Assembly: GCA_964567535.1 (NCBI GenBank)
Contig: CAZMNC010000150.1
Span: 1-62,441, forward strand
Direction of reading: 5' to 3'
DNA: 62,441 bases
Source of the DNA: an uncultured Desulfobacterales bacterium
GTDB lineage: Bacteria; Desulfobacterota; DSM-4660; Desulfatiglandales; JALVZP01
A program made the translations under genes and the position numbers. The notes under the pieces are model-generated. The model did not search any database and was not told the origin of the DNA. It worked only from the letters and a program-made list of their open reading frames with translations. This document shows, piece by piece, positions 13,787-33,286 of this stretch (position 1 is its first letter; every line of letters begins with the position of its first letter).

Positions 13787-15712
13787 TTATATTCTCCTTA
13801 GTCTCCTTATATCCCCTACCCTCACAGTAATCTGTGTTTTATCCAAATATTCTAAAAGAGGAATGCTATATTTTCTGGATGTATTGGTTAGTTCCTTAAA
13901 CTGACCAACACTCATCTCACCATGTTTTTTTAAAAAACTGATTACCTTCCTTATCAATTCATCTACTGAATCTCTATGCATATAAAGGTCTTCCTTTATC
14001 TTTATCAATCTTTGTTCCCAAATTAAATATTCTAATATCTCATTTGCAATTTCAGAATATTTGTCTTTTATTTCTTTAAAATATGGAGGTTGAAAACCTG
14101 CTTTTTTGTATATATCTTCAATCTGCTTTTTTACAACCTTTTGTTTATCTGTCAAGTTAGGCCTATAATTAGCAAGTCTAATGCTATCCATATCTAAAAA
14201 AAGATGCCCTTTTTTTACAAGATAATCTATTAAAAAGTTAAATAGTTTTATGTCCTTCATTAATCTCATTTTAGATTTAAGTTCACCTTTTGGCATACCT
14301 GACCTAAAAGGGTATTCTTTATGATAAGCAGATACAAGATTAATAAGTATCTCGGTAAGCTCCTTAAAAAAATGATAGTGTATAATGAGTCCTTGCTCTT
14401 CATCATATTTATATACAAGATTATTATCTATTAAGTCATCTATGATAGCCATCAAATGTGGTCTTTTAATATTACTTAAAGAAACAAGTTTATTTATATC
14501 TATTCCATCAAATCCTTCCATAAAGATAAAAGCTTCAACTATATCCTTTGTTTGGCCCTGATGAATTAAATGAAGCCGTTTAATTATTTCCTCAGATAAG
14601 CCCTTTTTCTTTTTTTTGGGCATAGGATGCAATATAATACCTCCTCCTATTGTCCTTACTGGAGAATAACTCCTTATCACATATCTATCACCTCTTAATA
14701 CAGAAATAGGATGTTCAAGTCTTATCTGGGCATAACAGGAATCTCCAGGTTGTAGCTGTTCTTTATTAAAAAAGATAATATTTGCCATAACTTCAGAAGT
14801 TCCACTATGTAATCTTACCTTTTCTCTATTTTTTAAAATTCTCGGAGCACTGTAAAGAAGCTCAATAAACACGTCTAACATATAAGATGAATTTAATGAA
14901 CCCTTTGATGCAACCACATATCCTCTTTCTATATGAGATTTATCTATTCCATGAAGGCTTAAAGCAGTTCTTGTACTGGGACCAACTTGCGTAACACTTT
15001 GATTATGCACTTGTATTGATCTGACTTTACATTCTATATTTATAGGGTATATAGTTACTTCCTCTCCCACCTTTATCTCTCCAGATATAGTGGTACCTGT
15101 AACAACTGTCCCGAAGCCTTTTATAGTAAAAACTCTATCTATTGGTAATCTAAATATATGTCCTGTCTCCTTTTTAGGAAGTCTTTGGATTAATTTAGTT
15201 AACACTTCAATAAATTTATTTAGACCTTCGCCTGTAATTGAAGATACTTCAACAATAGGAGCATTTGCTAAAAAAGTATTTTTTATATATTCTTGAATAT
15301 CATCTCTAACCAATTCTAACCACTCATTGTCTACCATATCTATTTTTGTAATAACCACAATACCATATTGTATACCAAGTAATTGGCATATTTCTATATG
15401 CTCTTTTGTTTGAGGCATTACACCTTCGTCAGCAGCTACAATAAGGGCAACAAGATCTATTCCAGATGCTCCAGCAACCATGTTTTTTACAAATCTTTCA
15501 TGTCCAGGGACATCTACAATTCCCACTAAAGTACCATCTGGAAGGCTCATGTGAGCAAAACCCAATTCTATAGTAATTCCTCTCTCTTTTTCTTCTTTAA
15601 GCCTATCCGTATCTATACCAGTAAGAGCCTTAATAAAAGATGTTTTTCCATGATCAATATGTCCAGCTGTTCCAAGAATTATTTTTTTCATAGCCATTTT
15701 GAAATTATCCAA
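13787..15712 (-). CDS. selB: Selenocysteine-specific translation elongation factor
   Basis: GTPase G1-G4 motifs ([23 protein letters not shown]). About 640 aa with a long C-terminal winged-helix extension (..[23 protein letters not shown]) typical of bacterial SelB. Confidence 0.9.
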
Positions 15713-15766: not shown

Positions 15767-16960
15767 TCACACAATAAATACATCACATGGGGTTCTACTA
15801 ATCATTTTATAGCCTTTCTCTGTTACCAAAAAAACACTTTCTATACCAGCAGCGAATTCATCTTTAAATATTATTTTTGGTTCAAGAGCAAATACCATTC
15901 CTGGCTTCATTTCTATATCTTTATTCATAGCAATAATAGGATGTTCCACAAGTTCAAGTCCTATTCCATGACCTACAAACGATACTTTATATCCAGGAGG
16001 TCCTAAAAATTCATTTATATATCCTACATCATGTGCTATCTTTAAAGAGATATGAAATAGTTCATCCATTGAAATTCCAGGAACAACTTTATTTAATATA
16101 TGATATTGTATATCAATAGCTGCCTTACATGCATCAAGTGCCTTTTTTGGCATAGAGCCAATTGCAAACATTCTCGTTTCATCACAATGAAATCCATTTA
16201 ACATAGTGCCAAAATCTATCATTATTGGCTCATCTTTCTCTATTATTCTATGACTTGCACCACAAGGAAAAGCTGGAGAAGTGCCTTCTCCACTTGTAGG
16301 GGCATCTAATAAACCTATCTTACCACCATTTTTACCACTTAATATATGCCACGGATATCCCTCAGACCTATAGTCCCTTATTCTGAGTTGACCACCATGA
16401 CCATGCTTTCTTGCAAAAGTCTCAATTATCCCAGCAAATTCCATTTCTGTATATCCAGCTTTAAGATTTTCTTGTATATATTTGAATACCATGCAAGAAA
16501 GATTTGCTGCTTTCTGCATTTGTTCTATTTCCCAAGGAGATTTTATCATTCTTATATTGTGTATCAAAACAGAAGCATCTACACACCTTTGCTCATAAAA
16601 TACTTGCTGATCATAAAATAGAAATTCTTTTACAGGTATAACGTCAAATTCCATACCAATAGTATTGGGCATATTACCATAATATCCATATATATACTTT
16701 GGAATGTTTTTTACAGAAGTAATCTCTATTATATCTTTTATTGGAGACTCTTCTCTTGCCCTCGGAAAATATTTTTTTATCATTAACAAAGGCTTTCCTT
16801 CTGCTGGAACGTACAGATAACCATTCTGAGCAGTTCCTGTAAAATAAAAAAGGTCTACTCTTTGGACTATAAAAATAGAATCTATATCATTTTTTATTAA
16901 CTCCATCTGCAATCTATTTATTCTATTAATTATTTCTTCCTCAGGCACTTTAAACTCCAT
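15767..16960 (-). CDS. M24-family Xaa-Pro aminopeptidase/dipeptidase (creatinase-like N-domain)
   Basis: FGTMLNGFHCDETRMF, VGHGIGLELVEHP and LEPK blocks are metal ligands of M24B peptidases. Start set at MEFKV (ATG 16960, preceded by AAGGAGAAAG). The longer ORF-track start would overlap the RseC-like gene. Confidence 0.85.
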   Translation of the reverse strand: MEFKVPEEEIINRINRLQMELIKNDIDSIFIVQRVDLFYFTGTAQNGYLYVPAEGKPLLMIKKYFPRAREESPIKDIIEITSVKNIPKYIYGYYGNMPNTIGMEFDVIPVKEFLFYDQQVFYEQRCVDASVLIHNIRMIKSPWEIEQMQKAANLSCMVFKYIQENLKAGYTEMEFAGIIETFARKHGHGGQLRIRDYRSEGYPWHILSGKNGGKIGLLDAPTSGEGTSPAFPCGASHRIIEKDEPIMIDFGTMLNGFHCDETRMFAIGSMPKKALDACKAAIDIQYHILNKVVPGISMDELFHISLKIAHDVGYINEFLGPPGYKVSFVGHGIGLELVEHPIIAMNKDIEMKPGMVFALEPKIIFKDEFAAGIESVFLVTEKGYKMISRTPCDVFIV

Positions 16961-17011
16961 CTTCTTTCTTTCTCCTTGTATATTTTTTATCATTGATTTA
17001 TTATAAAAAAG

Positions 17012-17446
17012 ATGCTTACAGAACAAGGAATTGTAAAAGAAATAAACCATAATAAAGCAATTGTAAAGGTAGAAAGAACTTCGGCATGTAAGCATTGTTC
17101 TGCAAGAGGAACCTGTGGTGTAGATCTAGGCTCAGATAAAGAAATCTTGATAGAAGTAGATAATATTCTTAATGCAAAAGAAGGAGATAAAGTAGAACTC
17201 TCAATCCCATCAGGCTCACTTATAAAAATGGCTATTGCAGTATATATTTTGCCTATATTTTCTCTTATATTTGGTGCATATGAAGGAGGAAAATTATCAA
17301 CATATATCGGAATAACTTCAGGTCTTGGCTCAATTATAGGGGCTTTAGTTCTTCTTATAATCAGCTTCTTAATCCTCAGAAAGATAGATAAAAATATCAG
17401 AAGTAAAAATTCCTATAGAATTAAGATGACAAGAATAATATCTTAG
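17012..17446 (+). CDS. RseC/MucC-family (SoxR-reducing-system) membrane protein
   Basis: N-terminal GIVKEINHNKAIVKVERTSACKHCSARGTCG followed by two TM helices, which is the RseC architecture. Convergent with rnfB; the two stops overlap in 4 nt. Confidence 0.7.
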   Translation: MLTEQGIVKEINHNKAIVKVERTSACKHCSARGTCGVDLGSDKEILIEVDNILNAKEGDKVELSIPSGSLIKMAIAVYILPIFSLIFGAYEGGKLSTYIGITSGLGSIIGALVLLIISFLILRKIDKNIRSKNSYRIKMTRIIS

Positions 17447-19470
17447 TTAAGAGTTTCTTTTTTATAACATATCAGGCCACATTGAAGACATCTTTTTGCC
17501 TCTTCTCTTGCCTGTGTCTCTGTATATCCTAACTCTATTTCTAATGAAGGATCTTCAATTGTTTCTTCAATAGATCTCGTTGCCATCTTTTGTCTTGGCA
17601 CAGACTTAACCTCTCTAAGCTCTTTCACATCCAATACATAAGTATCTGATTTTATCATATTACTTGGTGCCTCAACAGGAACACCTCTAAAATAATGATG
17701 CAAAGATGCCGTCATTCTTCTTCCTGCCCCTATTGCATCTACAGCGGCTTTATAATCTGCAACAACCTCTCCAGGTCTAAAAATACCTATCTCATGTTTT
17801 GCATTAGGTCCTGCATATGGACTAATTGTCTCCCACAGCAAGTTGTCTGTGTCCTTACAAATATACATCAATTCTGGAAATCGACCTGCTCCTATCAAAA
17901 TAGTATTTACCTGAAGTAGATTTTTCTCTACTATATTGTTACCATCTGGTGTTAATTGGGCTACCTCTACCTCCTCCAAATCGTCACCTTTACCCATCAT
18001 CTTAATAAGAACAGTATTAAATAATATCTCAATACCATCTGGCATATCTTCTATTTTATTATAAAAATATTCTTCTTTAGAAAACCTCGATATTATATAA
18101 ACTTTGGATGCCCCTTTTTCTTTACATATCTTAGCTGCCTCTATAGAGGAAGTCCCTCCTCCTACTATAAGAACATCTGAGCCTATATACATTTGTTTAT
18201 CATCTTTAAAGTTTAGTATAAAATCTAATAATAATTGAATTCCCGGCATCGGAGTAAAAGGTTCAGGTAAGATTTCAGATAGATGAATCTTCATATCCCA
18301 TCCACCAGTAGCCACAAGAACAGCGGAAAAGCCTTCTTTAAATAATAATCCAATACTAATATCTTTACCAAGAACTTTATTAAATTCCACTTCGACTCCA
18401 GCTTCTAATATGCCTTTTATATCCCATTCAATTACATTCCTGGGAAGTCTATTTTCAGGAAGGCCAAGCCACAAAATACCCCCAAGCCTTGAAGTAGCTT
18501 CATAAACTTTTATATTATATCCTAACCGGTTCAAAAGATAAGCAGAAGTGAGGCCTTCCACACCTCCTCCTACAATTGCAATCTTTTCATCTCTTTCTGG
18601 TGCCCGTGGAACTTGAACATGAGCACCTTTTTGTATCTCCCAATCTGATACAAATCTTTTTAAGGGATTTATAGCCACTGGTTCATCAATAAGATTTCTT
18701 CTACATACTTGCTCACATGGATGTACACAAATTCTCCCACAAACACCAGGAAATGGATTTGACCTTTTAATAACAATAAGCGCTTCTTCATAATTACCTT
18801 CTCTAATAGCTTTTATATAGGAAGGAATATCTATACCTGCAGGACATGCTCGCTGACATGGGGCTGTACATTCATCTGTTGTATATTCATGAGTAATTGA
18901 TAATGAATTAGAACTAAGCTTGATAATGCTTTTTGGGCATATCCTTTCACATGTTCCACATCCCGTACATAGCTCTTTATCCACCACAGGTAATCTATCG
19001 GGACCAATAGAAAGTGCACCAAAGGGACAAGCCTTTACACATGTGCCAAGTCCTAAGCAGCCAATAGGACATTGCTTTTCTCCCCCATCTATAATTATAG
19101 CTCCTCTACAGTCTTGGATACCATCATAAATATATTTTCTATCAGCCTCAAATACACCATATTTACAATTAGGTTTAGCAACTTCGGGCTCTTTAAGCTC
19201 TATCTTTGCACCAACTATCTCTGCAATCTGCTGAATAATTTCAGGACTTGCGGCTACACATGAAGCAGGAGAAGACTTTCCCGCAACAATTGCCTCTGCA
19301 TTTGCACTACAACCAGGAAATCCACAACCACCACAATTTGCACCAGGAAGCAATTCATCCACAGCTTCTACCCGTGGATCTACATATACATAAAACACCT
19401 TTGATGCTATAGCAAGTCCTAATCCTAAAACTGCTCCAAGCCCTCCCATTACCAAGAGCCCTTCAATCAT
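17443..19470 (-). CDS. rnfB: RnfB fused to a GltD/NfnB-like NAD(P)H flavoprotein module
   Basis: N-terminal anchor plus LPGANCGGCGFPGCS cluster and ferredoxin motifs (CPIGCLGLGTCVKACP, CTGCGTCERICP) make up RnfB. The following ~430 aa carry CQRACPAGIDIP, GRICVHPCE and two dinucleotide folds (IAIVGGGVEGL, VLIVGGGTSSI), which is the glutamate synthase small-subunit-like arrangement. Confidence 0.85.
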   Translation of the reverse strand: MIEGLLVMGGLGAVLGLGLAIASKVFYVYVDPRVEAVDELLPGANCGGCGFPGCSANAEAIVAGKSSPASCVAASPEIIQQIAEIVGAKIELKEPEVAKPNCKYGVFEADRKYIYDGIQDCRGAIIIDGGEKQCPIGCLGLGTCVKACPFGALSIGPDRLPVVDKELCTGCGTCERICPKSIIKLSSNSLSITHEYTTDECTAPCQRACPAGIDIPSYIKAIREGNYEEALIVIKRSNPFPGVCGRICVHPCEQVCRRNLIDEPVAINPLKRFVSDWEIQKGAHVQVPRAPERDEKIAIVGGGVEGLTSAYLLNRLGYNIKVYEATSRLGGILWLGLPENRLPRNVIEWDIKGILEAGVEVEFNKVLGKDISIGLLFKEGFSAVLVATGGWDMKIHLSEILPEPFTPMPGIQLLLDFILNFKDDKQMYIGSDVLIVGGGTSSIEAAKICKEKGASKVYIISRFSKEEYFYNKIEDMPDGIEILFNTVLIKMMGKGDDLEEVEVAQLTPDGNNIVEKNLLQVNTILIGAGRFPELMYICKDTDNLLWETISPYAGPNAKHEIGIFRPGEVVADYKAAVDAIGAGRRMTASLHHYFRGVPVEAPSNMIKSDTYVLDVKELREVKSVPRQKMATRSIEETIEDPSLEIELGYTETQAREEAKRCLQCGLICYKKETLN

Positions 19471-19481
19471 ATCTATCCTCC

Positions 19482-20060
19482 TTAATGGATCATTCCTTTA
19501 AATGCAAAAAAAGCAAGGGAAAGCATCCCAGCAGTAACAAGTCCAATTGATGTATCCTGAAGAGGTTTAGGTACTCTTGCCAGTATTATCCTTTCTCTTA
19601 TAGCAGCAAAAAGGACTAAAGCAAGCCCAAAACCTACAGCATAGCTAAATGAAGACACTAAAGTTTGCATAAAATCATATTCCTCTTTCATATTTATCAA
19701 ACATACACCCAAAACTGCACAATTAGTAGTTATAAGAGGAAGATATATTCCCAAGCCTGCATAAAGAGCAGGAATATTCTTTTTTAAAAACATCTCCACC
19801 AATTGAACAAGAGCTGCAATAACTAATATAAAAGATAGAGTTCTGAGATATTCTAAATCATGTGGCTTCAATATATAATGATTTACTATCCATGTAACAG
19901 CTCCTGCCATTACCAAGACAAACACTACAGCCATAGCCATACCAACAGCTGTTTCCATTCTCTTGGAAACCCCAAGAAAAGGACAATTCCCCAAATATTG
20001 CATCAAAAGAATATTGTTTATAAAAATGCAGCTTATGGCTAAGACTATATAATTTTCCAT
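19482..20060 (-). CDS. rnfA: Rnf complex subunit A
   Basis: 192 aa polytopic protein. FINNILLMQYLGNCPFLGVSKRMETAVGMAMAV is the RnfA/NqrE-type signature. Confidence 0.9.
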   Translation of the reverse strand: MENYIVLAISCIFINNILLMQYLGNCPFLGVSKRMETAVGMAMAVVFVLVMAGAVTWIVNHYILKPHDLEYLRTLSFILVIAALVQLVEMFLKKNIPALYAGLGIYLPLITTNCAVLGVCLINMKEEYDFMQTLVSSFSYAVGFGLALVLFAAIRERIILARVPKPLQDTSIGLVTAGMLSLAFFAFKGMIH

Positions 20061-20079
20061 GACTTTAACCCCTTTTTAT

Positions 20080-20673
20080 TTACTTCTTTTTAAGCATATT
20101 CATTATGCACAACATAAGTCCTAAACATACAAATGCACCCGGAGCTTTCACCATAAAAGAAAAAGGTTTAAAACTAGGCCCAAAAACAGGTATATGGTAA
20201 AATGTCCCATATCCTAATATTTCCCTAAATGAAGCAAGAGTTGAAAGAGATAATGTATAACCTATTCCTATTCCAAGACCATCTGCTAAAGAAAGAATCA
20301 CGCTATTTTTTGATGCAAAAGCTTCAGCACGCCCTAATAAAATGCAGTTAACCACAATAAGAGGAATAAATATACCCAGTTTTAGATAAAGAGGATATGT
20401 AAATGCCTGCATAACAAGTTCTACAATAGTAACAAAAGTTGCTATAACAACAATAAAGCAGGCAATTCTAACCTGTTTAGGAATCAAATTTCTTAAAAGA
20501 GATACTATTATATTCGAACAAGTAAGAACAAATATAACCGCCATACCCATCCCAACTGCATTTTCTACTGTTTTTGTAACCGCAAGTGTAGGACAGAGTC
20601 CCAGAACTAAACGAAATGGTGGCACTTCTTCCCAAAGACCTTTTGTAAATTCGTGTATTATACCCTTTGGCAT
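20080..20673 (-). CDS. rnfE: Rnf complex subunit E
   Basis: 197 aa. LVLGLCPTLAVTKTVENAVGMGMAV is the RnfE/NqrD-type signature. Confidence 0.9.
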   Translation of the reverse strand: MPKGIIHEFTKGLWEEVPPFRLVLGLCPTLAVTKTVENAVGMGMAVIFVLTCSNIIVSLLRNLIPKQVRIACFIVVIATFVTIVELVMQAFTYPLYLKLGIFIPLIVVNCILLGRAEAFASKNSVILSLADGLGIGIGYTLSLSTLASFREILGYGTFYHIPVFGPSFKPFSFMVKAPGAFVCLGLMLCIMNMLKKK

Positions 20674-20685
20674 AATCTCACCCCT

Positions 20686-21279
20686 TTATGATTTAAAAGT
20701 TTTTAGCTTTTTAAGTATTTCAGGTCTTAATTTTTTATATATAGCAATTGCATTATTTACGGCTTGACATACACCTCGTGAAGATATAGTTGCTCCTGTG
20801 ACAGCATCTATTTGGCCACCATCCGCTTTTACCTTGAAGACCTGCATAACAGATAAACCTTTAAATTGAGCTCTAAAACTGGGATCTGTTTTTGTTCTAG
20901 AACCAACTCCAGGAGTTTCATGATGAGTTGTAACTCCTATGCCTATAATCTTATTACTATCTACGTCTATACCCACAATTACGCCTATCTCTCCTCCAAA
21001 ACCCTTGCCAAATGCTTCTAATGCTATGGCCTTTGGTTTACCATTAAAAATACCCACAAATATAGTCTTATGTGTTTTTCCATACTTTAATTTAAATCTA
21101 TCCACAATAGGGTCATTCTGACAACCTTTCATTATCTCTTTTAAAGTAGGACCTTTTACAAATTTTAACTGTTGATATTCTATCCTTGCTTGGGTACTGC
21201 TTCTAACCAGAGATAAAAGACCACCAGAAATCGCACTAAATATAGTAACAGCCAAAAATAGCTTTAACATATCACGCAT
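20686..21279 (-). CDS. rnfG: Rnf complex subunit G (FMN-binding)
   Basis: N-terminal anchor plus the flavinylation-type motif DAVTGATISSRGV. Start set at MRDML (ATG 21279), which overlaps the rnfD stop in ATGCGTGA. Confidence 0.85.
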   Translation of the reverse strand: MRDMLKLFLAVTIFSAISGGLLSLVRSSTQARIEYQQLKFVKGPTLKEIMKGCQNDPIVDRFKLKYGKTHKTIFVGIFNGKPKAIALEAFGKGFGGEIGVIVGIDVDSNKIIGIGVTTHHETPGVGSRTKTDPSFRAQFKGLSVMQVFKVKADGGQIDAVTGATISSRGVCQAVNNAIAIYKKLRPEILKKLKTFKS

Positions 21280-22240
21280 TTTCAAACCCCCTACCCCATG
21301 CCTTAGGTCTGATCTTATCAAATAATGGATTTGCAACATTCATAATAAGAATTGCAAATACCGTCCCATCTACAAATGCCCCTATGTTTCGTATCAACAT
21401 GATAAGAGTTCCAGCTCCAGCCCCATATATAATCTTTGGTATAAGATTTACTGGGGATGAGGAATCCTCTGGAGCAAGGAAAAAGGCGCCTAAGAGTGTA
21501 TAACCTGTAACTATATGAAATATAGGGGATGCATACTTGTCAGGATTATGTAGATGGAACAAATATGCAGTTATATATATACCAAGCAAAAATGATAAAG
21601 ATATCTCCCATTTTATATATCCTCTTAATATTAAATAGATACCACCTACTAATAAACCAAGCCCAAAAACCGCACCTATTGCTCCAGGTTGTTTGCCCAT
21701 AAATAAAGCATGTAAATTGTAATCTGAAACAGCAGATGCCCCAAAATGTTTTACTGCTGTTAAAGGATAAAACATTTTGAAACCAAAATCATAATTTACA
21801 AGAGCAGCATTAAAATCAAGTATATTTTTCCATGAAAGTATAAGCATTGCCATAGCCACAAGGGCTGGATTAAAAGGGTTACACCCTATTCCTCCATATA
21901 TCTGTTTTGCCACTACAATTGCTATAAAGGTTCCTACTACCACTATCCACCAGGGAGCAGTTGCTGGAAGCATCATACCAAATACAAGGCCGGTAAAGGC
22001 TGCACTGCCATCACCTATGGAAATAGGTCTTTTCATTATAAGATTCATGATTAATTCCCATAACATAGCACATGCTATGGAAAAAGTTATTACTCCTAAT
22101 GCAGGCAGACCATAAAGCCAAATTCCATATATAACAGCAGGTAATGCAGCTAATATGAGGTTATAATTCTTCTTAGTTATACTATCTCCATTATGACAAA
22201 AAGGTGCATGAGAACCTATAAACAATTTTTTATCAGGCAT
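21272..22240 (-). CDS. rnfD: Rnf complex subunit D
   Basis: Polytopic membrane protein with NqrB/RnfD-like blocks (SHAPF.., GGIGCNPFNPALVA). Start set at MPDKK (ATG 22240), overlapping the rnfC stop by 8 nt. Confidence 0.85.
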   Translation of the reverse strand: MPDKKLFIGSHAPFCHNGDSITKKNYNLILAALPAVIYGIWLYGLPALGVITFSIACAMLWELIMNLIMKRPISIGDGSAAFTGLVFGMMLPATAPWWIVVVGTFIAIVVAKQIYGGIGCNPFNPALVAMAMLILSWKNILDFNAALVNYDFGFKMFYPLTAVKHFGASAVSDYNLHALFMGKQPGAIGAVFGLGLLVGGIYLILRGYIKWEISLSFLLGIYITAYLFHLHNPDKYASPIFHIVTGYTLLGAFFLAPEDSSSPVNLIPKIIYGAGAGTLIMLIRNIGAFVDGTVFAILIMNVANPLFDKIRPKAWGRGFENA

Positions 22241-23456
22241 TTTGTTCCCCCATTTTGGAAAGCTCATGTTTTCCAAGCATTATATAATGAAATATGGGTA
22301 TCCTTGCTATACACACATAACTACATAAACCACATTCTACACATGAAAGGAGATCATATTCCTTTGCCGCCTCTTCAAAAAAACCATTTTCAAGAACTCT
22401 TATAAGCATATTTACAGGAACATTTACTGGACAAATGTTCACACACTCTCCGCAGTTTATGCAATGAGTATCAGAGGCATGAATAATTTCATCTTTCGAT
22501 TGAATAAATATTGCATCGGTATCATAATCTATAGGGAAATCAAGAGAATGTACAGTTCTACCTCTCATTAGTCCTCCAATAATTATTCTATCTTCATTAG
22601 ACAATTCTATGTCCAGCTGATTTAATATATGACCAATATTTGTTCCTATTCTCGCTTTCACATATAATATAGAGTAATCTTTTGAAATAATAGTTATAAG
22701 CTTATCAAAAATAAATTTACCCTCTAACAAACTTCCCATATTTGCCACTGCTTCTGCATTTATAAACTCAATTCCTATATCTTTTGGTTCTTTACCAGGC
22801 GGAATAATCTTTTTAAATACATCCTTTACAATAATCTTTGGAATAGCATTAGGATAAAAAGGTTTTATCACATAAATATCATTTCCTATTTCTTTGATAT
22901 ATGAATCAAAACCAGTGGGTACAATAAAACTTATCTTACCTATATGTGCTATTTCTTGAAGGTATTTTATACCTTTAGAAATATCTTGGCTTCTATTTTT
23001 TATTACTAATTGATTTGTACTCACAAATAAATCACTATCCATACCCATAATAACTATATGATTTATAGGAGGATCATATCCAATTAACGAAGAAATATTT
23101 TTAAAACCCGGTACTGAAAATGGGATATAATTTTTTGGTAAATCCTCATATTCATCATCTTCAACCTCTATAGAAACAAGGTAGAATTTCTGATTCATAT
23201 ACCCTATATATTCCGATACATCTTTTATTGTACCTGTTACAGGAGAAATAAAGTTATTATCCTTAAATCTAATTATTTGTCCTGTCTTTACTCTCTTGCC
23301 TATACACGCATAAAGCTCACTTAATCTTACACACTCTTGATCTAACAAAAGAGTTGCTTTTAAAGAAAGCGGAATCTCAGCTATAGATGCATCTTCACTT
23401 AAGAAAGGATAACGAAGTCTCGGTTTAATAAAAGAAAAAAATGGGCGTTTTACCAT
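22233..23456 (-). CDS. rnfC: RnfC homologue with degenerate NADH/FMN-binding motifs
   Basis: RnfC_N-type block ISPVTGTIKDV, IIGGLMRG block, and two ferredoxin clusters CINCGECVNICP and CVECGLCSYVC. The positions of canonical GLGGAGFP and NAAECEPY read SVPGFKNI and MGMDSDLF. Confidence 0.8.
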   Translation of the reverse strand: MVKRPFFSFIKPRLRYPFLSEDASIAEIPLSLKATLLLDQECVRLSELYACIGKRVKTGQIIRFKDNNFISPVTGTIKDVSEYIGYMNQKFYLVSIEVEDDEYEDLPKNYIPFSVPGFKNISSLIGYDPPINHIVIMGMDSDLFVSTNQLVIKNRSQDISKGIKYLQEIAHIGKISFIVPTGFDSYIKEIGNDIYVIKPFYPNAIPKIIVKDVFKKIIPPGKEPKDIGIEFINAEAVANMGSLLEGKFIFDKLITIISKDYSILYVKARIGTNIGHILNQLDIELSNEDRIIIGGLMRGRTVHSLDFPIDYDTDAIFIQSKDEIIHASDTHCINCGECVNICPVNVPVNMLIRVLENGFFEEAAKEYDLLSCVECGLCSYVCIARIPIFHYIMLGKHELSKMGEQNA

Positions 23457-23468
23457 CTTTATCCCCCT

Positions 23469-23849
23469 TTATCTTACATGACAACCAGAACACTCTGTAG
23501 GGCCAACACCCTGGTCTTCGTGGCAGCCTATACACTGCTTATGGAATGCCACAGCCCTTTTTGGAGCTTCATCACTTCCTTGAGGCAGGTGGCATTCACT
23601 ACATGGAGTAGGTTTTTCAGAATCATCTGATATATCATGATGACAATCTGTACAATCTACTCCGTAATCTTTGAAATGTGCCTTATGATCAAACAATACA
23701 TTTCCTGCAGTAGTCATTAACATAATCCTAATAGGCTGTTTCGGCTTTTTCAAAGGAAATGCAGCATAACATATTATACCTGCCATAAAACAAACTATAA
23801 TAATGATATAAGCAATTATGTTTTCTTTTTTTGATCTCATAACTAACAC
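23469..23849 (-). CDS. Membrane-anchored tetrahaem c-type cytochrome (c3-like), first gene of the rnf operon
   Basis: 126 aa. N-terminal hydrophobic anchor followed by four CxxCH motifs (CTDCH, CSECH, CIGCH, CSGCH). Confidence 0.85.
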   Translation of the reverse strand: MLVMRSKKENIIAYIIIIVCFMAGIICYAAFPLKKPKQPIRIMLMTTAGNVLFDHKAHFKDYGVDCTDCHHDISDDSEKPTPCSECHLPQGSDEAPKRAVAFHKQCIGCHEDQGVGPTECSGCHVR

Positions 23850-23983: not shown

Positions 23984-25627
23984 TTACTGATTCAAAAATT
24001 CATTTGAATTTTGTTCTTGATATAAATGCCTTATAATAATCTTTAAATGTTTTTTTATACCTTCTATCCAATATCCAGAAGCATCATCCTTAAGTTGTAG
24101 AGAAATATTCTCATATAATAGATATAAATCCTGGAAGCTGTTTATAGAGGCTTTTAAATTTAGATGTTTAAGCACAAGGTCAGTATCATTTAAAAAAGAA
24201 TCTATATTAAACTGACACACGTGTATATACGACAACATTAATAAAGCTGTTAATCTATCTATTTCAGCTATATAAAAATTTTGAAGGATTTCCGATAAAA
24301 TTTTTTCAGCATCATTAAATTCTTTTATATTCATATAAACCTCAGCAAGCCTTAATTTGGCACTAATATAAGAAGGATCAATAGAAATGGCCTTTTCCAA
24401 GCTATTTTTTGCTTTTTCATATTCCTTCATCTTTATATATCCAAGGGCTAACAAATTGTATAACCTTGCAGATGGTTCAAACTTAATATATTCCTCAATA
24501 TACATAACTGATTCATCTAATTTGTCCATTTTTATAAGTAAATCTATAAGTTTCATAATACTCTCTTTTTTTAGATCATCAGAATTTGCCAGTTTCCAAG
24601 CCCTTTTATATGCATCTAAAGCCATTTTACTATAGCCCAATTTTTCATTGCATTCACCAAGATGAAGGTAATATTTATATCTAATACTTTCTTCATCCAT
24701 AGGTATAGTTACAAGAGAAAGCTTAGCTGGATTTATACTGAAATATCTGTTTAATGCTTCCTTATAATCTCTCTCCTCCATATATATTTCAGCTGTAAAA
24801 AATTTTACTATATCATTTTCAGTAAACTCTTCTTCAAGACTTAATAGTATATCTTTTGCTTCTTTGTTATTACCTTTCCGTTTCAATAAATTTGAATACT
24901 TTATAGAAGCCCCTATAAACCAATTTTCATCAAGTCTTTTGCAATCCTCAGTTAATGATGCCTTTAAATGAAGCTCAGCAAGTTGTTCTTCCTCAAGCAC
25001 CTCATATGTTTGGGCTAAAAAATAATGAGAAAACCAATTGTTTGGATCTTCAGTAAGCATTTTTTTTAATATATTAAGGTTTCTATTAGCCTTTTTTTTC
25101 AGTGTATCAAGGTCTATATAACCTTTATGTTCTATTTTAATATCAGTAAACATACCCTTTATACCTTTTCTTTTTAAAGAAGGAACAATCTGTTCGTGTA
25201 TAGGAAATTCAAATTTTACACCAGATATATTTGGAAACAATCTGATTTGATATGCAGAACTAAAGACTCCTTCTGGAGAAGGAATAATTATTTTAAAAGC
25301 ATAAGCAACATTTTTATCTTTTGGAAGATGATTTTTTAGCTCATATATCTTTTTTGCATCTTTTTGGCTTATTCTATCATCCGCATCTATATATATAATA
25401 TATTCACCCTTTGCATGTTTTATAGATTCATTTCTTGCTGCTGAAAAATCATTGCACCATTTAAAATTATATACTTTTGCTCCCATTTCTTTTGCAATCC
25501 AAGGAGTTTTATCTTCTGAACCTGTATCAACTATAATTATCTCGTCTACCACATCTTTTATATTTTCAAGACAATCTTTTATATTTTTTTCCTCATTTTT
25601 TACTATCATACAAAGAGAAAGCTTCAT
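23984..25627 (-). CDS. Family 2 glycosyltransferase fused to TPR repeats
   Basis: N-terminal LSLCMIVKNEEKNI..IIIVDTGSEDKT..YIDADD (GT2 DxD) block. The C-terminal ~330 aa contain TPR-like repeats (AYKRAWKL, YNLLALGYIKMKEYEKAKNSLEKAISIDPSY). Confidence 0.8.
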   Translation of the reverse strand: MKLSLCMIVKNEEKNIKDCLENIKDVVDEIIIVDTGSEDKTPWIAKEMGAKVYNFKWCNDFSAARNESIKHAKGEYIIYIDADDRISQKDAKKIYELKNHLPKDKNVAYAFKIIIPSPEGVFSSAYQIRLFPNISGVKFEFPIHEQIVPSLKRKGIKGMFTDIKIEHKGYIDLDTLKKKANRNLNILKKMLTEDPNNWFSHYFLAQTYEVLEEEQLAELHLKASLTEDCKRLDENWFIGASIKYSNLLKRKGNNKEAKDILLSLEEEFTENDIVKFFTAEIYMEERDYKEALNRYFSINPAKLSLVTIPMDEESIRYKYYLHLGECNEKLGYSKMALDAYKRAWKLANSDDLKKESIMKLIDLLIKMDKLDESVMYIEEYIKFEPSARLYNLLALGYIKMKEYEKAKNSLEKAISIDPSYISAKLRLAEVYMNIKEFNDAEKILSEILQNFYIAEIDRLTALLMLSYIHVCQFNIDSFLNDTDLVLKHLNLKASINSFQDLYLLYENISLQLKDDASGYWIEGIKKHLKIIIRHLYQEQNSNEFLNQ

Positions 25628-25749: not shown

Positions 25750-26226
25750 ATGGATAAAAAAATGGAGCATTCCCTTTTAAAAAACACAATAGAATCTACA
25801 AAGTCAGTATTTAATATGATGGCAGGCATAGATGTTAAAGGAGAAGATATTATTATATTTAATAAAGATGGAGTTAAGGGGGATGTTACAGGAATAATAG
25901 GATTATCCAATGATCATATAAAAGGATCTATGGCCATTACTTTTCCAGAAGAATTAGGGAAAGAAGTAGTGGCAAATATGCTTGCAATAGCACCTGAGGA
26001 TATTTCAGAAGAAGAGCTAAAAGATGGTTTAGGTGAAATAACAAATATGGTAGCAGGAGATCTTAATAATAGAATAGGAAATATATTTAAACTTTCTCTT
26101 CCAAGTGTTATAACCGGCAAAGATCATTTGGTTTCCTTAACTCATAATGATACACCCATTGTATTTAAATTTTTTGCATTAGATAAACCCTTTCATTTAT
26201 TAGCAACATTTGAAGAGCAAAAATAA
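25750..26226 (+). CDS. cheX: CheX-type CheY-P phosphatase
   Basis: 158 aa. One D-x3-E-x2-N motif (DGLGEITN) followed by ..SLPSVITG, the single-site CheX arrangement. Confidence 0.75.
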   Translation: MDKKMEHSLLKNTIESTKSVFNMMAGIDVKGEDIIIFNKDGVKGDVTGIIGLSNDHIKGSMAITFPEELGKEVVANMLAIAPEDISEEELKDGLGEITNMVAGDLNNRIGNIFKLSLPSVITGKDHLVSLTHNDTPIVFKFFALDKPFHLLATFEEQK

Positions 26227-26246
26227 TAAAAAAGGAGGTTGATATT

Positions 26247-26615
26247 ATGAAATTACTTATTGTGGATGACTCAGCCACTATGAGAAAAATCATAATGCGA
26301 GGGATAAGACAGTCTGGTTTTAAGGTGGACGAATTTTTAGAAGCAGGAAATGGAAAGGAAGCATTGGAAGTTATTAATTCTAATTCAGTAGATATAGTTT
26401 TAACTGACATAAATATGCCAGAGATGAATGGACTGGAATTGCTTGAAAAATTGAGAACGTCTCCTGATACTCAAAATCTTCCGGTAGTAATGATAACTAC
26501 AGAAGGTGCAGAAAGTATAGTGGAAAAAGCAAAGCAATTAGGACTAAATGGATTTATACGAAAACCTTTTACTCCTGAAGCTATAGGTTCTACATTATCT
26601 AATATAATGGGGTAG
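26247..26615 (+). CDS. cheY: Chemotaxis response regulator CheY
   Basis: Single receiver domain: LIVDDS, phospho-acceptor context VLTDINMPEMNG, GFIRKPF. Confidence 0.9.
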   Translation: MKLLIVDDSATMRKIIMRGIRQSGFKVDEFLEAGNGKEALEVINSNSVDIVLTDINMPEMNGLELLEKLRTSPDTQNLPVVMITTEGAESIVEKAKQLGLNGFIRKPFTPEAIGSTLSNIMG

Positions 26616-26619
26616 AATA

Positions 26620-27831
26620 ATGGAGCCTAACAAATTAGGTCCTATAATAAGACCCCTTTTTAAAAATATAAAAGCCCTGTTTAAAGATCTTGTTCAAGGT
26701 GACGCTGTACTTGGTTTTAGAAAAGGGGCAGATGGTAAGCTAGAAGACTTAAAACCCATTTTATGGGATAAGGCATTTGGATGCAAAGTAAAGGTCGATA
26801 ATGTTACAGATCAGGGTCTTTTTTTGATAATGGAAAGAAATGGAGGTATTTTTCTAAGTGGAAAGCTGCTTGTTCTTCCCCAAAGTAATATAGATGATCT
26901 AATGAAAAAAAATGAGGTAAATGAATCTATACTTGATGCTCAAAAAGAAATCTTTAATATGTTAGTGGGAAAAATAAATGATATTTTAATAGAAAAAGTA
27001 GAAAAAGATATACACCTTGTAATGGGTGAAAATTTCATAATAGACCAACAGGATCTATCATTTTTGCCATCAGATGAAGAATATATTTCATATACTGCTA
27101 GTGTAAAAATGGCAGGACCTATAACTTTCTCAATGGCACTTATTATTAGTAATGAATTAGCAAAATTCATTATAAAACATATATCTACAGATGATGAAGA
27201 AGAAATTGATCAGGACATAGAAAAAGATATAGATGAAAAAAGCGATGATAATATAGAAAATCAACCTGAATTTGAAAGTGAAGAAAAAGAGGTAAAACAA
27301 AATATAAATATATCTTCCTCATTCAAGAAATTAAACAAAAATTCAGATAATGCGGATTTTTATATAGAATATATTATGGAAGAAGACTTTCCTGTGGCAC
27401 AAATAGGTACATCACTATGGAGTGCACTCATTAAGATGAAAAAGTATGGAATAGATTATATAATATTAGTAGATGGCCTTAAATTTATTGGCTTATTAAC
27501 AATGGCAGACATAAGACGAGGATTAAGTCCTTTTATTGAAGATCCCTTTAAAGAATATTGCAGAGAACAAGATTTAGCTACTAAATCATTTAATGTAGAA
27601 TGGTTCTTAGAAAAAGAGATAACCCCTGTCTCTTATAATGCATCTCTTGAAGAAATCATTCAATCTTATGTGAATCAGAATACTCCTTATTTGCCTGTAT
27701 GTAAAAATCAAAGGATCATGGGAGTTATCACGCATAAAAAGCTGATTGAATTTCTTGGAGAATTATTATTTGCTCAATTTTCATCTACTCCAGAATCAGA
27801 TTTTAATTTGGCCGCAACTGGTAGCAAATAG
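26620..27831 (+). CDS. CheC/CheX-like domain fused through an acidic linker to a CBS pair
   Basis: The N-terminal ~190 aa have one D-x3-E-x2-N motif (DAQKEIFN), but Gly rather than Pro sits 23 residues downstream. Asp/Glu-rich linker (TDDEEEIDQDIEKDIDEKSDD). Two CBS repeats at the C-terminus (..YGIDYIILVDGLKFIGLLTMADI.. and ..LPVCKNQRIMGVITHKKLIEFL). Confidence 0.6.
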   Translation: MEPNKLGPIIRPLFKNIKALFKDLVQGDAVLGFRKGADGKLEDLKPILWDKAFGCKVKVDNVTDQGLFLIMERNGGIFLSGKLLVLPQSNIDDLMKKNEVNESILDAQKEIFNMLVGKINDILIEKVEKDIHLVMGENFIIDQQDLSFLPSDEEYISYTASVKMAGPITFSMALIISNELAKFIIKHISTDDEEEIDQDIEKDIDEKSDDNIENQPEFESEEKEVKQNINISSSFKKLNKNSDNADFYIEYIMEEDFPVAQIGTSLWSALIKMKKYGIDYIILVDGLKFIGLLTMADIRRGLSPFIEDPFKEYCREQDLATKSFNVEWFLEKEITPVSYNASLEEIIQSYVNQNTPYLPVCKNQRIMGVITHKKLIEFLGELLFAQFSSTPESDFNLAATGSK

Positions 27832-28621
27832 CTCCATTAATGTTTCTTCTAATCATATCTGGGCTTAAATTGGATGGAATTTCACTGGCTCCAAAAAACA
27901 AATATCCTCCTTTATTTAACATTCTATGTAAACGATTTAATATATCTTTTTTTAAAGCATTTGAAAAATATATAAGAACATATCTACAAAATATAATATC
28001 AAACTTTCCCAAGTGAGAAAAATTGTTTTTTAGATTTATAATTATAAATTTAACCATTCTCTTTATTTTTTGATCTATAACCCATCTATTCCCTTGTTGT
28101 CTAAAATATTTTGCAAGCATACGAGCAGGAAGTCCTCTGTTTACTTCAATTTGGGAGAATTCCCCTTTTTTTGCATACTCCAGAACTTTATTTGATATAT
28201 CACTTGCTATTATCTCTATATTCCACCTCAAAAGCTCTGGAAAGAATTCATATATGAGAAGCGCTATACTATATGGTTCTTGACCGGTAGAACATGCTGC
28301 ACTCCATATTCTTAGCCTTTTTGTTGATTTATTCTTTTCCATTAATTCAGGAATTATATGTCTTTTAAGTATATCAAATTGAACTTTGTCTCTAAAAAAA
28401 AATGTTTCATTAGTAGTCAATGCATCTATTATCTGGTTTAACAGTGAGTTAGTAAGACGGAATTTCGCATTGCTATAAAGCTCTTCTATTCCTGAAAATC
28501 CCAGACTTTTAGACAACTCTTCTAAACGACTTTTAATTAAATAGGCCTTATTATTCCCCAACACTATACCTGTATGCTTTAAAGCAAAATTAGAAAAAAA
28601 ATCTATTATCTCCTGTTTCAT
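27803..28621 (-). CDS. cheR: Chemotaxis protein methyltransferase CheR
   Basis: TNETFFFRD, IWSAACSTGQEPYSIA and CRYVLIYF blocks are CheR signatures. Confidence 0.9.
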   Translation of the reverse strand: MKQEIIDFFSNFALKHTGIVLGNNKAYLIKSRLEELSKSLGFSGIEELYSNAKFRLTNSLLNQIIDALTTNETFFFRDKVQFDILKRHIIPELMEKNKSTKRLRIWSAACSTGQEPYSIALLIYEFFPELLRWNIEIIASDISNKVLEYAKKGEFSQIEVNRGLPARMLAKYFRQQGNRWVIDQKIKRMVKFIIINLKNNFSHLGKFDIIFCRYVLIYFSNALKKDILNRLHRMLNKGGYLFFGASEIPSNLSPDMIRRNINGAICYQLRPN

Positions 28622-28633
28622 ATAAAACCTAAC

Positions 28634-29704
28634 TTATTTTTTTACCATATCTGAAATGAATTTAGGTACTTGATAAAGTGGCACAACCTTATCTGCAAGA
28701 CCTGCTTCAACTACCGCCTTAGGCATCCCCCATACTACAGAACTACTTTCATCTTGAGCTATTATATAAGCTCCTTTTTCTTTTAAAACTTTTGCTCCTT
28801 TCAAACCATCACTTCCCATACCTGTTAATATTATAGCCAATGTCTTTCCATTATAAACCTCAGCTACAGATCTGAAAAGCACATCTACTGCAGGCCTGCA
28901 ATTATTTTCTGGAGGTCCTTTATGAAGTCTGATTTTCACGATTCTATCTTTATTATTCACTTCCATATGATAATCTCCAGGTGCTATATATATAACACCC
29001 GCCTTTACCAATTCGCCGTTTTCTGCCTCTTTTACCTTAAGCCGACACAATTTATCAAGTCTTTCTGCAAATTGTGATGTAAACACAGGGGGCATATGTT
29101 GAACAATAAAGATAGGAACAGCAATATGAGGATCTAAATTAGACAGGAGTTCCTTTAAGGCACTTGGTCCTCCTGTAGAAACACCTATTGCCACAGCCTC
29201 TTTTTTGCGTATAGGAAGAGATAATGCCTTAGGTAATGGTTTAGATTTACTAATTATTTTATGAAAATGCCTGTTAGCAGTAATAGCAGACCTCTTTTTT
29301 ACATAACATATCTTTATTTTTGGAACCAGAAGTGACGCAATTTTATTAATATTTTGGGAAAAGGAGTTATTTGAAGGTTTTGGCACAAAATCAAAAGCAC
29401 CCTTTTCAAGTGCATCAAAAGTCATTTTAGCACCTGCTTGGGAATGGGAAGAAAAAACAATTATACCTATATTCATATTTAATTTATTTAAATAGTCAAG
29501 TGTTTCCAATCCATTCATCTCTGGCATTTCTAAATCAAGGGTAACAACATCAGGTTTTAATCTATTTATTAAATCTATTGCAATCCTTCCATTAGCAGCT
29601 GTTCCCACTACCTCTATTTGTGGATCTTGAGAAATAGTTTTAGTGATTATTTTTCTATAAACAGCACTATCATCCACTACCAACACCTTTATTTTGCTGT
29701 TCAT
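28634..29704 (-). CDS. cheB: Protein-glutamate methylesterase CheB
   Basis: N-terminal receiver (VLVVDDSAVYR, TLDLEMPEMNG) plus methylesterase domain (IGVSTGGPSAL, QHMP, LTGMGSDG). Confidence 0.9.
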   Translation of the reverse strand: MNSKIKVLVVDDSAVYRKIITKTISQDPQIEVVGTAANGRIAIDLINRLKPDVVTLDLEMPEMNGLETLDYLNKLNMNIGIIVFSSHSQAGAKMTFDALEKGAFDFVPKPSNNSFSQNINKIASLLVPKIKICYVKKRSAITANRHFHKIISKSKPLPKALSLPIRKKEAVAIGVSTGGPSALKELLSNLDPHIAVPIFIVQHMPPVFTSQFAERLDKLCRLKVKEAENGELVKAGVIYIAPGDYHMEVNNKDRIVKIRLHKGPPENNCRPAVDVLFRSVAEVYNGKTLAIILTGMGSDGLKGAKVLKEKGAYIIAQDESSSVVWGMPKAVVEAGLADKVVPLYQVPKFISDMVKK

Positions 29705-30069
29705 ATATCCTCCATAAGCATGTTTATCTTTGCAACAAGCATCTCATGATCAAAAGGTTTCATTAAATATTCATCAGCCCCTGCATTTAAAGCCTCAATA
29801 ATACTATCTTGTTGGTTTTCGCTTGTAACCATCATTATCTTTATATTTCTCCAATCAGGGTTTTTGCGAACAATTTTTAAAAATTCATAACCACTCATAC
29901 CAGGCATATTCCAATCCAAAAGTATCAAATCAAAGAAACCATGCTCATAAAGAATATGCAGTGCTTTCTCTCCATTCTCTGCTTCTAATACTTCACAATT
30001 AATACTTTTTAATATCTTTTTCATTATTCCTCTAACTGCCTTAGAATCATCAACTACAAGCACTTTCAT
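29701..30069 (-). CDS. cheY: Chemotaxis response regulator CheY (second copy)
   Basis: Receiver domain: VLVVDDSKAVR, LILLDWNMPGMSG, EYLMKPF. Confidence 0.9.
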   Translation of the reverse strand: MKVLVVDDSKAVRGIMKKILKSINCEVLEAENGEKALHILYEHGFFDLILLDWNMPGMSGYEFLKIVRKNPDWRNIKIMMVTSENQQDSIIEALNAGADEYLMKPFDHEMLVAKINMLMEDI

Positions 30070-30085
30070 GATAAACTCCTAATAT

Positions 30086-30496
30086 TTATTGTTTTTGTAT
30101 AGCTTCTGAATCCAAAATAATAAGAAGATTATTAGAAAGTTTACTTATGTTTTTTATATATTTAGTGTCTATCCCTTCCAAATGATCAGGAACAGGTTCC
30201 ATATCTTTTTCATCTACACTAATTACGTCCCCTATCTCTTCAACAAGAAGACTTACAGGTTCATCAGAAGTTTTTATTATGATATGATAATATATATTTC
30301 TATTTTCATCATATGTTAAGTTTAGTTTCTTTGCTAAATGAATAGCTGTAATTATTTGTCCTCTTAAATTGATTATTCCTTCTACATAATATGGGCTTTT
30401 GGGTACATATGTAATCTCAAAAGATCTCTTTATCTCCATAACATCTTCTACAGGAAGAGCAAATAAGAAATTACTAAAATAAAAAGTAATAAACAT
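30086..30496 (-). CDS. cheW: Chemotaxis coupling protein CheW
   Basis: 136 aa single CheW domain (VEGIINLRGQIITAIHL, LLVEEIGDV). Confidence 0.85.
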   Translation of the reverse strand: MFITFYFSNFLFALPVEDVMEIKRSFEITYVPKSPYYVEGIINLRGQIITAIHLAKKLNLTYDENRNIYYHIIIKTSDEPVSLLVEEIGDVISVDEKDMEPVPDHLEGIDTKYIKNISKLSNNLLIILDSEAIQKQ

Positions 30497-30510
30497 AAGC
30501 GTTCACCTCC

Positions 30511-33081: not shown

Positions 33082-33116
33082 TGTACCCTTCCTCCTTTTA
33101 GGATTACCTATATTCT

Positions 33117-33148
33117 TTTTCGGAAAATAAAAACAGATTTTCGGAAAA
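33117..33148. promoter_or_regulatory. Two copies of the 11-bp palindrome TTTTCgGAAAA spaced 21 bp start to start
   Basis: TTTTCGGAAAA at 33117-33127 and again at 33138-33148, in the divergent cheA/fliC intergenic region. Each copy is an inverted repeat TTTTC-N1-GAAAA. Confidence 0.5.
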
Positions 33149-33248: not shown

Positions 33249-33286
33249 CATAAACCAAGAAAACAAAATAAAAGGAGGTTGGGACT

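Follow-up and report, generated by a model that had tools for sequence, protein, structure and literature searches.

The window analyzed here is a 62,441-nucleotide (nt) stretch (contig CAZMNC010000150.1, assembly GCA_964567535.1) from an uncultured low-GC (~31%) Desulfobacterales-like genome, and the system in question is a minus-strand operon that encodes an Rnf-type membrane complex together with a multihaem cytochrome c. The cytochrome gene is followed by rnfC, rnfD, rnfG, rnfE, rnfA and rnfB, so that genes for the full set of six Rnf subunits stand together, as judged from the open reading frames (ORFs) and their Pfam and NCBIfam matches (Table 1). This order had been read from the DNA in the original prediction and agrees with the family matches; the 8-nt overlaps that it noted are likewise present, ATGCCTGA at rnfC/rnfD and ATGCGTGA at rnfD/rnfG, and therefore place the true starts of rnfD and rnfG at 22240 and 21279. 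With the canonical Rnf complexes of Acetobacterium woodii (9eri), Clostridium tetanomorphum (7zc6) and Azotobacter vinelandii (8ahx) the encoded complex shares six homologous subunits, the N-terminal module of RnfB and the flavin mononucleotide (FMN) site of RnfG; unlike them, it lacks the FMN/NADH motifs of RnfC and the flavinylated Thr of RnfD, carries about 480 additional residues on RnfB, and comes with an added cytochrome gene.

Table 1. Genes of the rnf operon and the convergent downstream gene; aa, amino acids; TM, transmembrane.
Feature	Coordinates	Strand	Remarks
Cytochrome c3-like, membrane-anchored tetrahaem, 126 aa	23469..23849	-	operon gene 1; PF02085
RnfC homologue, 407 aa	22233..23456	-	without FMN Gly-loop and ECEPY NADH motif; two 4Fe-4S motifs kept
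RnfD, 322 aa from ATG 22240	21272..22240	-	PF03116 3.9e-90; covalent-FMN Thr replaced by Tyr
RnfG, 197 aa from ATG 21279	20686..21279	-	periplasmic FMN-binding subunit; NF045876 253 bits, PF04205
RnfE	20080..20673	-	Pfam/NCBIfam; Cys pair aligned with NqrD C29/C112
RnfA	19482..20060	-	Pfam/NCBIfam; Cys pair aligned with NqrE C26/C120
RnfB module of fusion, aa 1-195	18886..19470	-	TM helix, CGGCGFPGC cluster, two ferredoxin-type 4Fe-4S motifs; PF04060 and Fer4
NfnB/StnC/GltD-like module of fusion, aa 198-675	17443..18879	-	PF14691 6.9e-24, Pyr_redox_2
RseC/MucC-family membrane protein	17012..17446	+	PF04246 1.1e-32; convergent with rnfB, 4-nt overlap at rnfB stop

The first gene lies 12 nt upstream of rnfC and, as had been proposed, encodes a small anchored protein with four CxxCH motifs (residues 66, 83, 106 and 120) behind a hydrophobic N-terminus. 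It matches the class III cytochrome family PF02085 (1.8e-14; 54 bits against a cut-off of 22.9), and four further conserved histidines (H55, H58, H71 and H102) fit the bis-histidine ligation pattern of c3 cytochromes. The score against the acidic type II c3 model of TmcA stays well below threshold (NF045722; 68 bits against 114). A lipoprotein nature was considered for the anchor and rejected: the conserved Cys of …VVCYAAFP… stands outside a lipobox context and is a Ser in one of the closest relatives (locus L009). The cytochrome gene also precedes rnfC in the eight most closely related genome loci (L003-L010).

RnfC retains the fold of its family and has lost the nucleotide and flavin motifs, as judged by alignment and a structural model. 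The window protein was aligned using MAFFT with 20 family members, E. coli RsxC (NC_000913.3) and the RnfC chains of three solved complexes (8ahx_C, 7zc6_C and 9eri_C, near-complete sequences recovered from phmmer alignments). The canonical Gly-rich loop G[IV][VA]G[LM]GGAxFP is replaced by a family consensus LPGxxDF (SVPGFKNI in the window), N[AG][AS]ECEPY[IL]T by xG[IMV]DxDL[LF] (MGMDSDLF), and YPxGxEKQL by YPNxLPxxI (YPNAIPKII); no intact Gly-rich or ECEPY motif is found, which bears out the earlier reading that the NADH and FMN motifs are missing and the two 4Fe-4S clusters kept. Retained are the biotinyl-like N-terminal ISPVTGTIKDV block, GGPMxG (here GGLMRG) and both CxxCxxCxxxC motifs, whose eight cysteines are invariant in 50 family sequences. 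Across the family, the mean column identity is 60% and 52 positions are invariant. The AlphaFold2 model (predicted local distance difference test score, 79; predicted template modeling score, 0.76) finds RnfC chains first in Foldseek searches (9eri_C at 2.6e-26, then 8ahx_C and 7zc6_C, to 1.6e-23) and NqrA next, at ~1e-16. Scores against curated models fall below their cut-offs: 167 versus 246 bits for TIGR01945 (model positions 155-433 only), 21.2 versus 31.2 bits for Complex1_51K (PF01512) and 20 versus 26 bits for RnfC_N; an SLBB domain has no Pfam match in the window RnfC.

A second flavin site is lost in RnfD. Aligned to 9eri_D, 7zc6_D and E. coli RsxD, the flavinylation site T[TS]ATPL reads KMFYPL in the window, with Tyr in place of the Thr that carries the covalent FMN; the subunit is otherwise well conserved. 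A Tyr occupies the same position in the PDB chain 9ud3_B, a Vibrio cholerae NqrB. The remaining membrane subunits look conventional. RnfG belongs to the RnfG_DVU2794 subfamily (NF045876; 253 bits against a cut-off of 205) and has an intact flavinylation motif, DAVTGATISS, of which …GAT[IV][ST]S is kept in the relatives whose loci were read directly. RnfA and RnfE match their canonical counterparts (1.5e-64 to A. woodii RnfA; 1.9e-55 to canonical Rnf), and their cysteines, which align with NqrE C26/C120 and NqrD C29/C112, respectively, are present in the window and in the loci with degenerate RnfC described below. At the level of conserved motifs, then, the input half of the complex is intact: RnfB keeps its Fe-S chain, RnfA and RnfE the cysteines that ligate the [2Fe-2S] cluster in the membrane, and RnfG its periplasmic covalent-FMN site. 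In the canonical output half, both flavin sites are degenerate: RnfD is without the flavinylated Thr and RnfC without the FMN/NADH motifs, but RnfC keeps its Fe-S ligands.

RnfB is a 675-residue fusion (PF04060, Fer4, PF14691 and Pyr_redox_2), and matches of both parts to solved structures support the proposal that an ordinary RnfB has been joined to a GltD/NfnB-like flavoprotein. Residues 1-190 match RnfB of solved complexes (7zc6_B, 2.4e-49; 9eri_B, 6e-48); residues 199-669 match models for the NAD(P)-binding protein PRK12771, GltD and NfnB. The best match to the C-terminal ~480 residues is the NfnB-like domain of the Caldicellulosiruptor saccharolyticus NfnABC large subunit (9bov_A, 3.6e-65; 5e-65 for residues 198-669), followed by Sporomusa ovata StnC (8oh5_C) and Thermococcus sibiricus NfnABC (9n5u_A), Thermotoga maritima NfnB (4ylf_B, 1.5e-53), and then Pyrococcus furiosus NfnI, GltD and DPD, a ranking that a Foldseek search with the fusion model reproduces. 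The opening segment of NfnB (…LGYT…EA.RCLQC, 4ylf_B residues 21-42) aligns to fusion residues 643-665, and the first CxxC of the proximal cluster (RCLQCG) therefore sits at the C-terminus in a circularly permuted arrangement, as in StnC and NfnABC.

The ligand residues of this extension point to an NfnB/GltD-type module with flavin adenine dinucleotide (FAD), NAD(P)H and two [4Fe-4S] clusters. Its cluster cysteines (C201/205/209 with C661/664, and C244/248/252/256) are invariant in 50 sequences, as are G301-G303, E305, G306 and E324 of the FAD fold IAIVGGGVEGL…VYEA and its RLP motif. The second Rossmann fold, GGGTSSIE…VYIISR, departs from the GGGNTAMD…YRR of NfnB and StnC, and G438, V457 and R462 are its only family-invariant positions. 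A site for NAD(P)H on the extension is likely, and this part of the original prediction remains the best hypothesis; the suggested preference for NADPH cannot be read from the sequence, in which the loop has a single invariant Arg. Fold, two 4Fe-4S Cys motifs and both Rossmann folds are thus shared with NfnB, StnC, the NfnABC large subunit and GltD, including the placement of the C-terminal …RCLxCG segment as in StnC and NfnABC; the window module differs in being fused behind a membrane-anchored RnfB and in not keeping the NADPH loop consensus (NTAMD, YRR).

Could the fusion be a frameshift join, with RnfC and RnfD on their way to becoming pseudogenes? Nothing but the sub-threshold family scores of RnfC speaks for such an artefact or decaying operon, and conservation refutes it. 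All of the top 120 database clusters (NCBI, JGI, ENA and Logan) have lengths of 658-703 residues and share one domain string, and the fusion recurs in ~50 independent loci; it is therefore no assembly artefact. The same architecture appears in more than 100 clusters of these databases and on long complete contigs, the RnfC family has the column identity and invariant positions given above, and a proteomic study of Desulfococcus multivorans reports that all Rnf2 subunits except RnfA2 were detected under all tested conditions (PMC5109826). The chance that the operon is a product of error or decay is practically nil.

Full-length homologues of the long RnfB (44-49% identity) also occur outside rnf operons, in loci L013, L014, L015, L019, L021, L022, L024, L026 and L027, often followed by rseC. 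Directly upstream of the homologue in L021 lie genes that, by eye and from their N-terminal sequences alone, resemble NuoE and HydB/NuoF; if so, their context would be Stn/NfnABC-like. An FdhA-like pair adjoins the gene in L024. A membrane-anchored Nfn/Stn-type enzyme may thus exist. For the operon itself, these stand-alone homologues and the fact that the solved structures nearest to the module are bifurcating subunits (NfnABC, StnABC and NfnAB) raise the alternative of a membrane-bound, Nfn/Stn-like bifurcation or confurcation, in which the FAD of the long RnfB would split NADPH electrons between a low-potential RnfB/ferredoxin branch and a second branch, through docked RnfC clusters or a membrane path. 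The operon contains neither an NfnA-like nor a HydBC-like partner, and GltD has the same fold without bifurcating; this alternative is improbable.

To establish which features are lost together, related loci were compared by BLAST and by the alignment columns that hold the RnfC, RnfD and RnfG motifs. The sample comprised 8 genome loci, two long-read contigs (6.5 and 4.1 Mb), 80 metagenome loci from an alignment-based scan and 3 Desulfovibrionaceae loci (L092-L094). The 8 genome loci, retrieved by a genome-contig search with the window RnfB, all come from metagenome-assembled genomes labelled Desulfobacterales or 'Deltaproteobacteria' (best identity, 74%), and the operon is conserved in them (L003-L010) and in L092-L094. 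In loci with canonical RnfC, RnfB is short in 22/22, the flavinylation residue of RnfD is Thr in 21 and Ser in one, within D-x-x-[ST]-x-[AP]-[TS]-P-L, and a multihaem ORF is found in none of the 22. In the window and 29 loci of the degenerate-RnfC type (within L001-L010, L012-L052, L070 and L092-L094), the flavinylation context of RnfD is absent in 30/30: in the window and 26 loci, the position holds Tyr in 15, another residue in nine, and in three (L030, L032 and L033) a Thr that lacks the D..SGA context; in L092, L093 and L094, it holds Tyr, Asp and Ala. Where RnfC is cut off or too short (L001, L012, L023, L043, L045 and partly L048), loci were typed by RnfD and operon type instead of RnfC motifs. 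At least 20 of the degenerate-RnfC loci have a neighbouring gene for a c3-type cytochrome. The cytochromes of this type of locus carry 4, 8, 10 or 14 haems, and their genes are placed before rnfC or after rnfB; at least two long-RnfB operons, L035 and L070, have no cytochrome gene within their available flanks.

The double loss extends beyond the fusion. In L049 and L052, a cytc-rnfCDGEA-rseC operon stands beside a short, divergently transcribed rnfB, and both RnfC and RnfD are degenerate. L093 combines a decahaem cytochrome, rnfCDGEA, a 292-residue RnfB and apbE, which is the Desulfovibrio-type dhcA-rnfCDGEAB-apbE layout, with a degenerate RnfC and a Thr-less RnfD. A further sample of 16 RnfC proteins, of which eleven carry Desulfovibrionaceae names (Pseudodesulfovibrio, Maridesulfovibrio and Desulfovibrio spp.) and one is labelled as a Desulfovibrionaceae metagenome-assembled genome, lacks both motifs and keeps both Fe-S motifs in 16/16. 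Since degenerate RnfC and RnfD also occur with a short RnfB, the double loss marks a cytochrome-linked clade and not the fusion; in these comparisons, some members of that clade have the RnfB extension and others do not. A single coupled transfer of the nucleotide site from RnfC to RnfB is not supported; in the loci read, canonical RnfC comes with a short RnfB, and what the loss tracks is the cytochrome. An apparent exception, L082, was rejected, as its match is a separate GltD-like gene that covers residues 201-595 only and lies beside a canonical operon.

Much of this constellation has a precedent. With reference to Wöhlbrand et al. (2016), Dörries et al. (2016) describe a 'Desulfobacula toluolica Tol2-type Rnf' whose RnfB has ~700 residues with NAD+-binding sites and whose RnfC is without NADH-dehydrogenase and SLBB domains; the rnf2 cluster of D. 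multivorans contains a 15-kDa cytochrome, Desulfobacterium autotrophicum has the same Rnf repertoire, and these features and the main inference 'await experimental verification' (PMC5109826). In marine Desulfovibrionaceae, a 'FAD-dependent oxidoreductase' has been reported to replace rnfB, and an analogy to the Na+-translocating NADH:quinone oxidoreductase (Na+-NQR) has already been drawn (PMC11434368). The association of a cytochrome, a degenerate RnfC and a long RnfB is therefore already described, in PMC5109826 and, similarly, in PMC11434368. The locus is, with high confidence, a new low-GC Desulfobacterales member of this known Tol2-type, cytochrome-linked Rnf: it shares with the D. toluolica Tol2, D. 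multivorans and D. autotrophicum systems an RnfB of ~700 residues with NAD-binding folds, an RnfC without NADH-dehydrogenase/SLBB signatures, a small acidic cytochrome gene and a Desulfobacterales host, a likeness that is drawn from the published description and from relatives in Desulfobacterales/Desulfobacteraceae metagenome-assembled genomes; the names of the database cluster members were all of such assembled genomes, with no cultured Desulfobacteraceae among them. The window clade differs from the Tol2-type in an extra ~15-residue deletion in RnfC (407 versus ~428 residues): in a comparison with family members P0139-P0236, its sub-clade has 404-409 residues and the majority 426-430, and the deletion falls at residues ~100-115, in the helix just before the lost Gly loop.

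The Desulfovibrio-type dhcA-rnfCDGEAB(F) operons of D. alaskensis G20 and D. vulgaris (PMC4215793; PMC4841214) likewise begin with a cytochrome c3-family gene, continue with rnfCDGEAB and encode an RnfG of the DVU2794 subfamily; they differ in a decahaem instead of a tetrahaem cytochrome and, in the short-RnfB form (L093), in an apbE gene after rnfB. The Desulfovibrionaceae loci L092-L094 share the degenerate RnfC and the Thr-less RnfD with the window, strains G20 and Hildenborough lying outside the sample. What is new here is that loss of the RnfD flavinylation site co-occurs with a degenerate RnfC, and that the degeneracy reaches short-RnfB operons of the Desulfovibrio-type layout, both as read from alignments. 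Loss of the RnfD Thr in a six-subunit Rnf was not found in the literature searched: a 2024 preprint notes Thr loss for two-subunit Nqr/Rnf-like systems only, and the eLife flavinylation surveys of 2021 and 2024 concern these two-subunit systems, not the six-subunit type.

How might electrons move through such a complex? In the mechanism favored here, the FAD of the RnfB extension would oxidize NAD(P)H, and the retained ferredoxin-like domain of RnfB may in addition serve as a docking site for reduced ferredoxin. Electrons would then pass from the RnfB clusters through the [2Fe-2S] cluster of RnfA/E to the FMN of RnfG and exit on the periplasmic side, from RnfG-FMN to the anchored tetrahaem cytochrome c3 and on to the cytochrome c/Qrc-Tmc-Dsr network of sulfate respiration. 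Movement of Na+ or H+ would be coupled at RnfA/E, the path would be reversible, and RnfC and RnfD would persist as a scaffold or as a second Fe-S port. The link to a periplasmic cytochrome c pool, already suggested in the original prediction, likewise stays a leading hypothesis, and the missing covalent-FMN Thr of RnfD lends it further weight. An analogy is offered by the Rnf of Methanosarcina acetivorans, which is co-transcribed with the multihaem cytochrome c MmcA and whose RnfC has two 4Fe-4S motifs; it is NAD(P)-independent, its RnfC has no NADH role, Na+ translocation has been shown and electron transfer from RnfG-FMN to cytochrome c proposed (PMC4023990). The archaeal complex differs in using ferredoxin as the sole donor, in an RnfB that lacks the NfnB-like module and in an acceptor chain that leads to methanophenazine and HdrDE.

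Several observations weigh against this exit through the cytochrome. By an estimate from textbook potentials, transfer from NAD(P)H to a c3 cytochrome leaves little energy with which to pump ions. In the extension, the NAD(P)H loop deviates from the NfnB/GltD consensus, nucleotide binding there being inferred; L035 and L070 have no cytochrome gene nearby; and, since the RnfC cysteines are invariant and RnfD is well conserved, it can be argued that the RnfC/D branch still carries electrons. In D. alaskensis, finally, a dhcA mutant has almost no fitness defect, and rnf mutants do show one (PMC4215793). On the other side of the ledger, attempts to detect ion gradients coupled to ferredoxin:NAD+ in D. 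alaskensis vesicles were 'unsuccessful' (PMC4841214). Taken alone, the cytochrome-exit mechanism is held tentatively, a little short of even confidence; the family assignment and the mechanism as one combined statement are evenly poised between right and wrong.

The invariant RnfC cysteines, the kept RnfC fold, the two operons without a nearby cytochrome and the dispensability of dhcA can also be accommodated by a retained loop from cytoplasm to cytoplasm, with NAD(P)H at the long RnfB, another soluble partner (ferredoxin, flavodoxin or an Hdr/DsrC-type protein) at the 4Fe-4S clusters of RnfC, reached through a non-covalent RnfD flavin, and the cytochrome as a side-port. According to PMC5109826, Wöhlbrand et al. 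(2016) likewise postulate a partner of RnfC. This loop has to contend with the loss, in every such locus, of the RnfD flavinylation site, which is needed for transfer from FMN of RnfG to FMN of RnfD in the solved Rnf and NQR structures, and with the cytochrome gene that most of the operons carry, and it is unlikely to be the route in use.

A third possibility is an NQR-like NAD(P)H:menaquinone oxidoreductase, with the NAD(P)H-flavin module on the RnfB/NqrF side, an RnfC/NqrA homologue without a substrate site and quinone reduced at RnfD. The design is comparable: the entry module sits on the B/F side and the RnfC/NqrA homologue is substrate-less in both systems, RnfC matches NqrA profiles and folds, and the arrangement parallels the proposed origin of NQR (PMC4014512; PMC11434368). 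The entry module, however, is of the NfnB/GltD and not of the NqrF/FNR type, and the RnfC of the window keeps the Fe-S clusters that NqrA has lost. The covalent FMN on NqrB is essential in NQR and the equivalent Thr is gone here, and the co-transcribed cytochrome would be left without explanation; an enzyme of this kind is improbable.

The survey invites a wider version of the cytochrome-exit reading. Whether its RnfB is long or short, the entire cytochrome-linked Rnf clade of sulfate reducers may be not a ferredoxin:NAD+ oxidoreductase but a one-way 'half-Rnf'. Its route between cytoplasmic ferredoxin or NAD(P)H and the periplasmic cytochrome c pool would run via RnfB, RnfA/E, RnfG-FMN and the cytochrome. 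Both flavins would be gone from the return branch of RnfD and RnfC, the joint loss of the Thr in RnfD and the motifs in RnfC would serve as the sequence signature, and the RnfB-NfnB fusion would be a later add-on that feeds NAD(P)H into the same exit. The studied Desulfovibrio strains are outside the sample, and the generalization is possible but doubtful.

Electron transfer between cytoplasmic ferredoxin/NAD(P)H and the periplasmic cytochrome c3/menaquinone network is a long-standing gap in the bioenergetics of sulfate reducers, and D. alaskensis needs Rnf for growth on H2, formate and ethanol (PMC4215793). Yet Rnf is modelled as a plain ferredoxin:NAD+ pump. On the sequence evidence, the cytochrome-linked clade cannot work in the way that this model shows, because its RnfC is without the NADH/FMN motifs and its RnfD without the flavinylation site. 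Reconstructions of marine Desulfobacterales, including the syntrophic partners of methane oxidizers, that book Rnf as ferredoxin:NAD+ may err in stoichiometry and direction, and the RnfD/RnfC double loss provides a concrete, testable signature of the clade.

The surroundings of the operon are mixed in content. An rseC gene adjoins the long rnfB in most loci, also where the latter stands outside rnf operons; in the window, it overlaps the first ~28 codons of a 442-residue PepQ-like ORF (15767-17095, minus strand), whose N-terminal extension MLTCRSSFYLYNCF… is probably not translated, with the true start further in. A promoter and terminator scan of the window returned 21 promoter-like sites, below the shuffle expectation of 32; a TTGACA-N17-TATAAA element upstream of the cytochrome gene, picked out by eye, did not reach the level of that scan, and no promoter is claimed. 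No further energy-metabolism genes are present among the 20 window ORFs scanned. Directly upstream of the operon (23984-25627, minus strand), a 547-residue protein fuses a SunS-like glycosyltransferase domain to tetratricopeptide repeats. The segments 1439-3250 and 4575-8372 hold a radical S-adenosylmethionine C-methyltransferase for the maturation of ribosomally synthesized and post-translationally modified peptides (TIGR03975, 389 bits) near a 1265-residue ORF that has no NCBIfam match at 1e-10. A putative SelB-type selenocysteine elongation factor, judged by its sequence, is encoded at 13787-15712 (minus strand); if it is correctly assigned, the organism uses selenoproteins. The segments 25750-44338 and 46157-58810 carry a large chemotaxis/flagellar block (a CheA-CheY hybrid, CheB, FliD, three methyl-accepting chemotaxis proteins and, by eye, small CheY- and CheX-like ORFs), followed by a PEP-CTERM/XrtA-type exopolysaccharide gene set.

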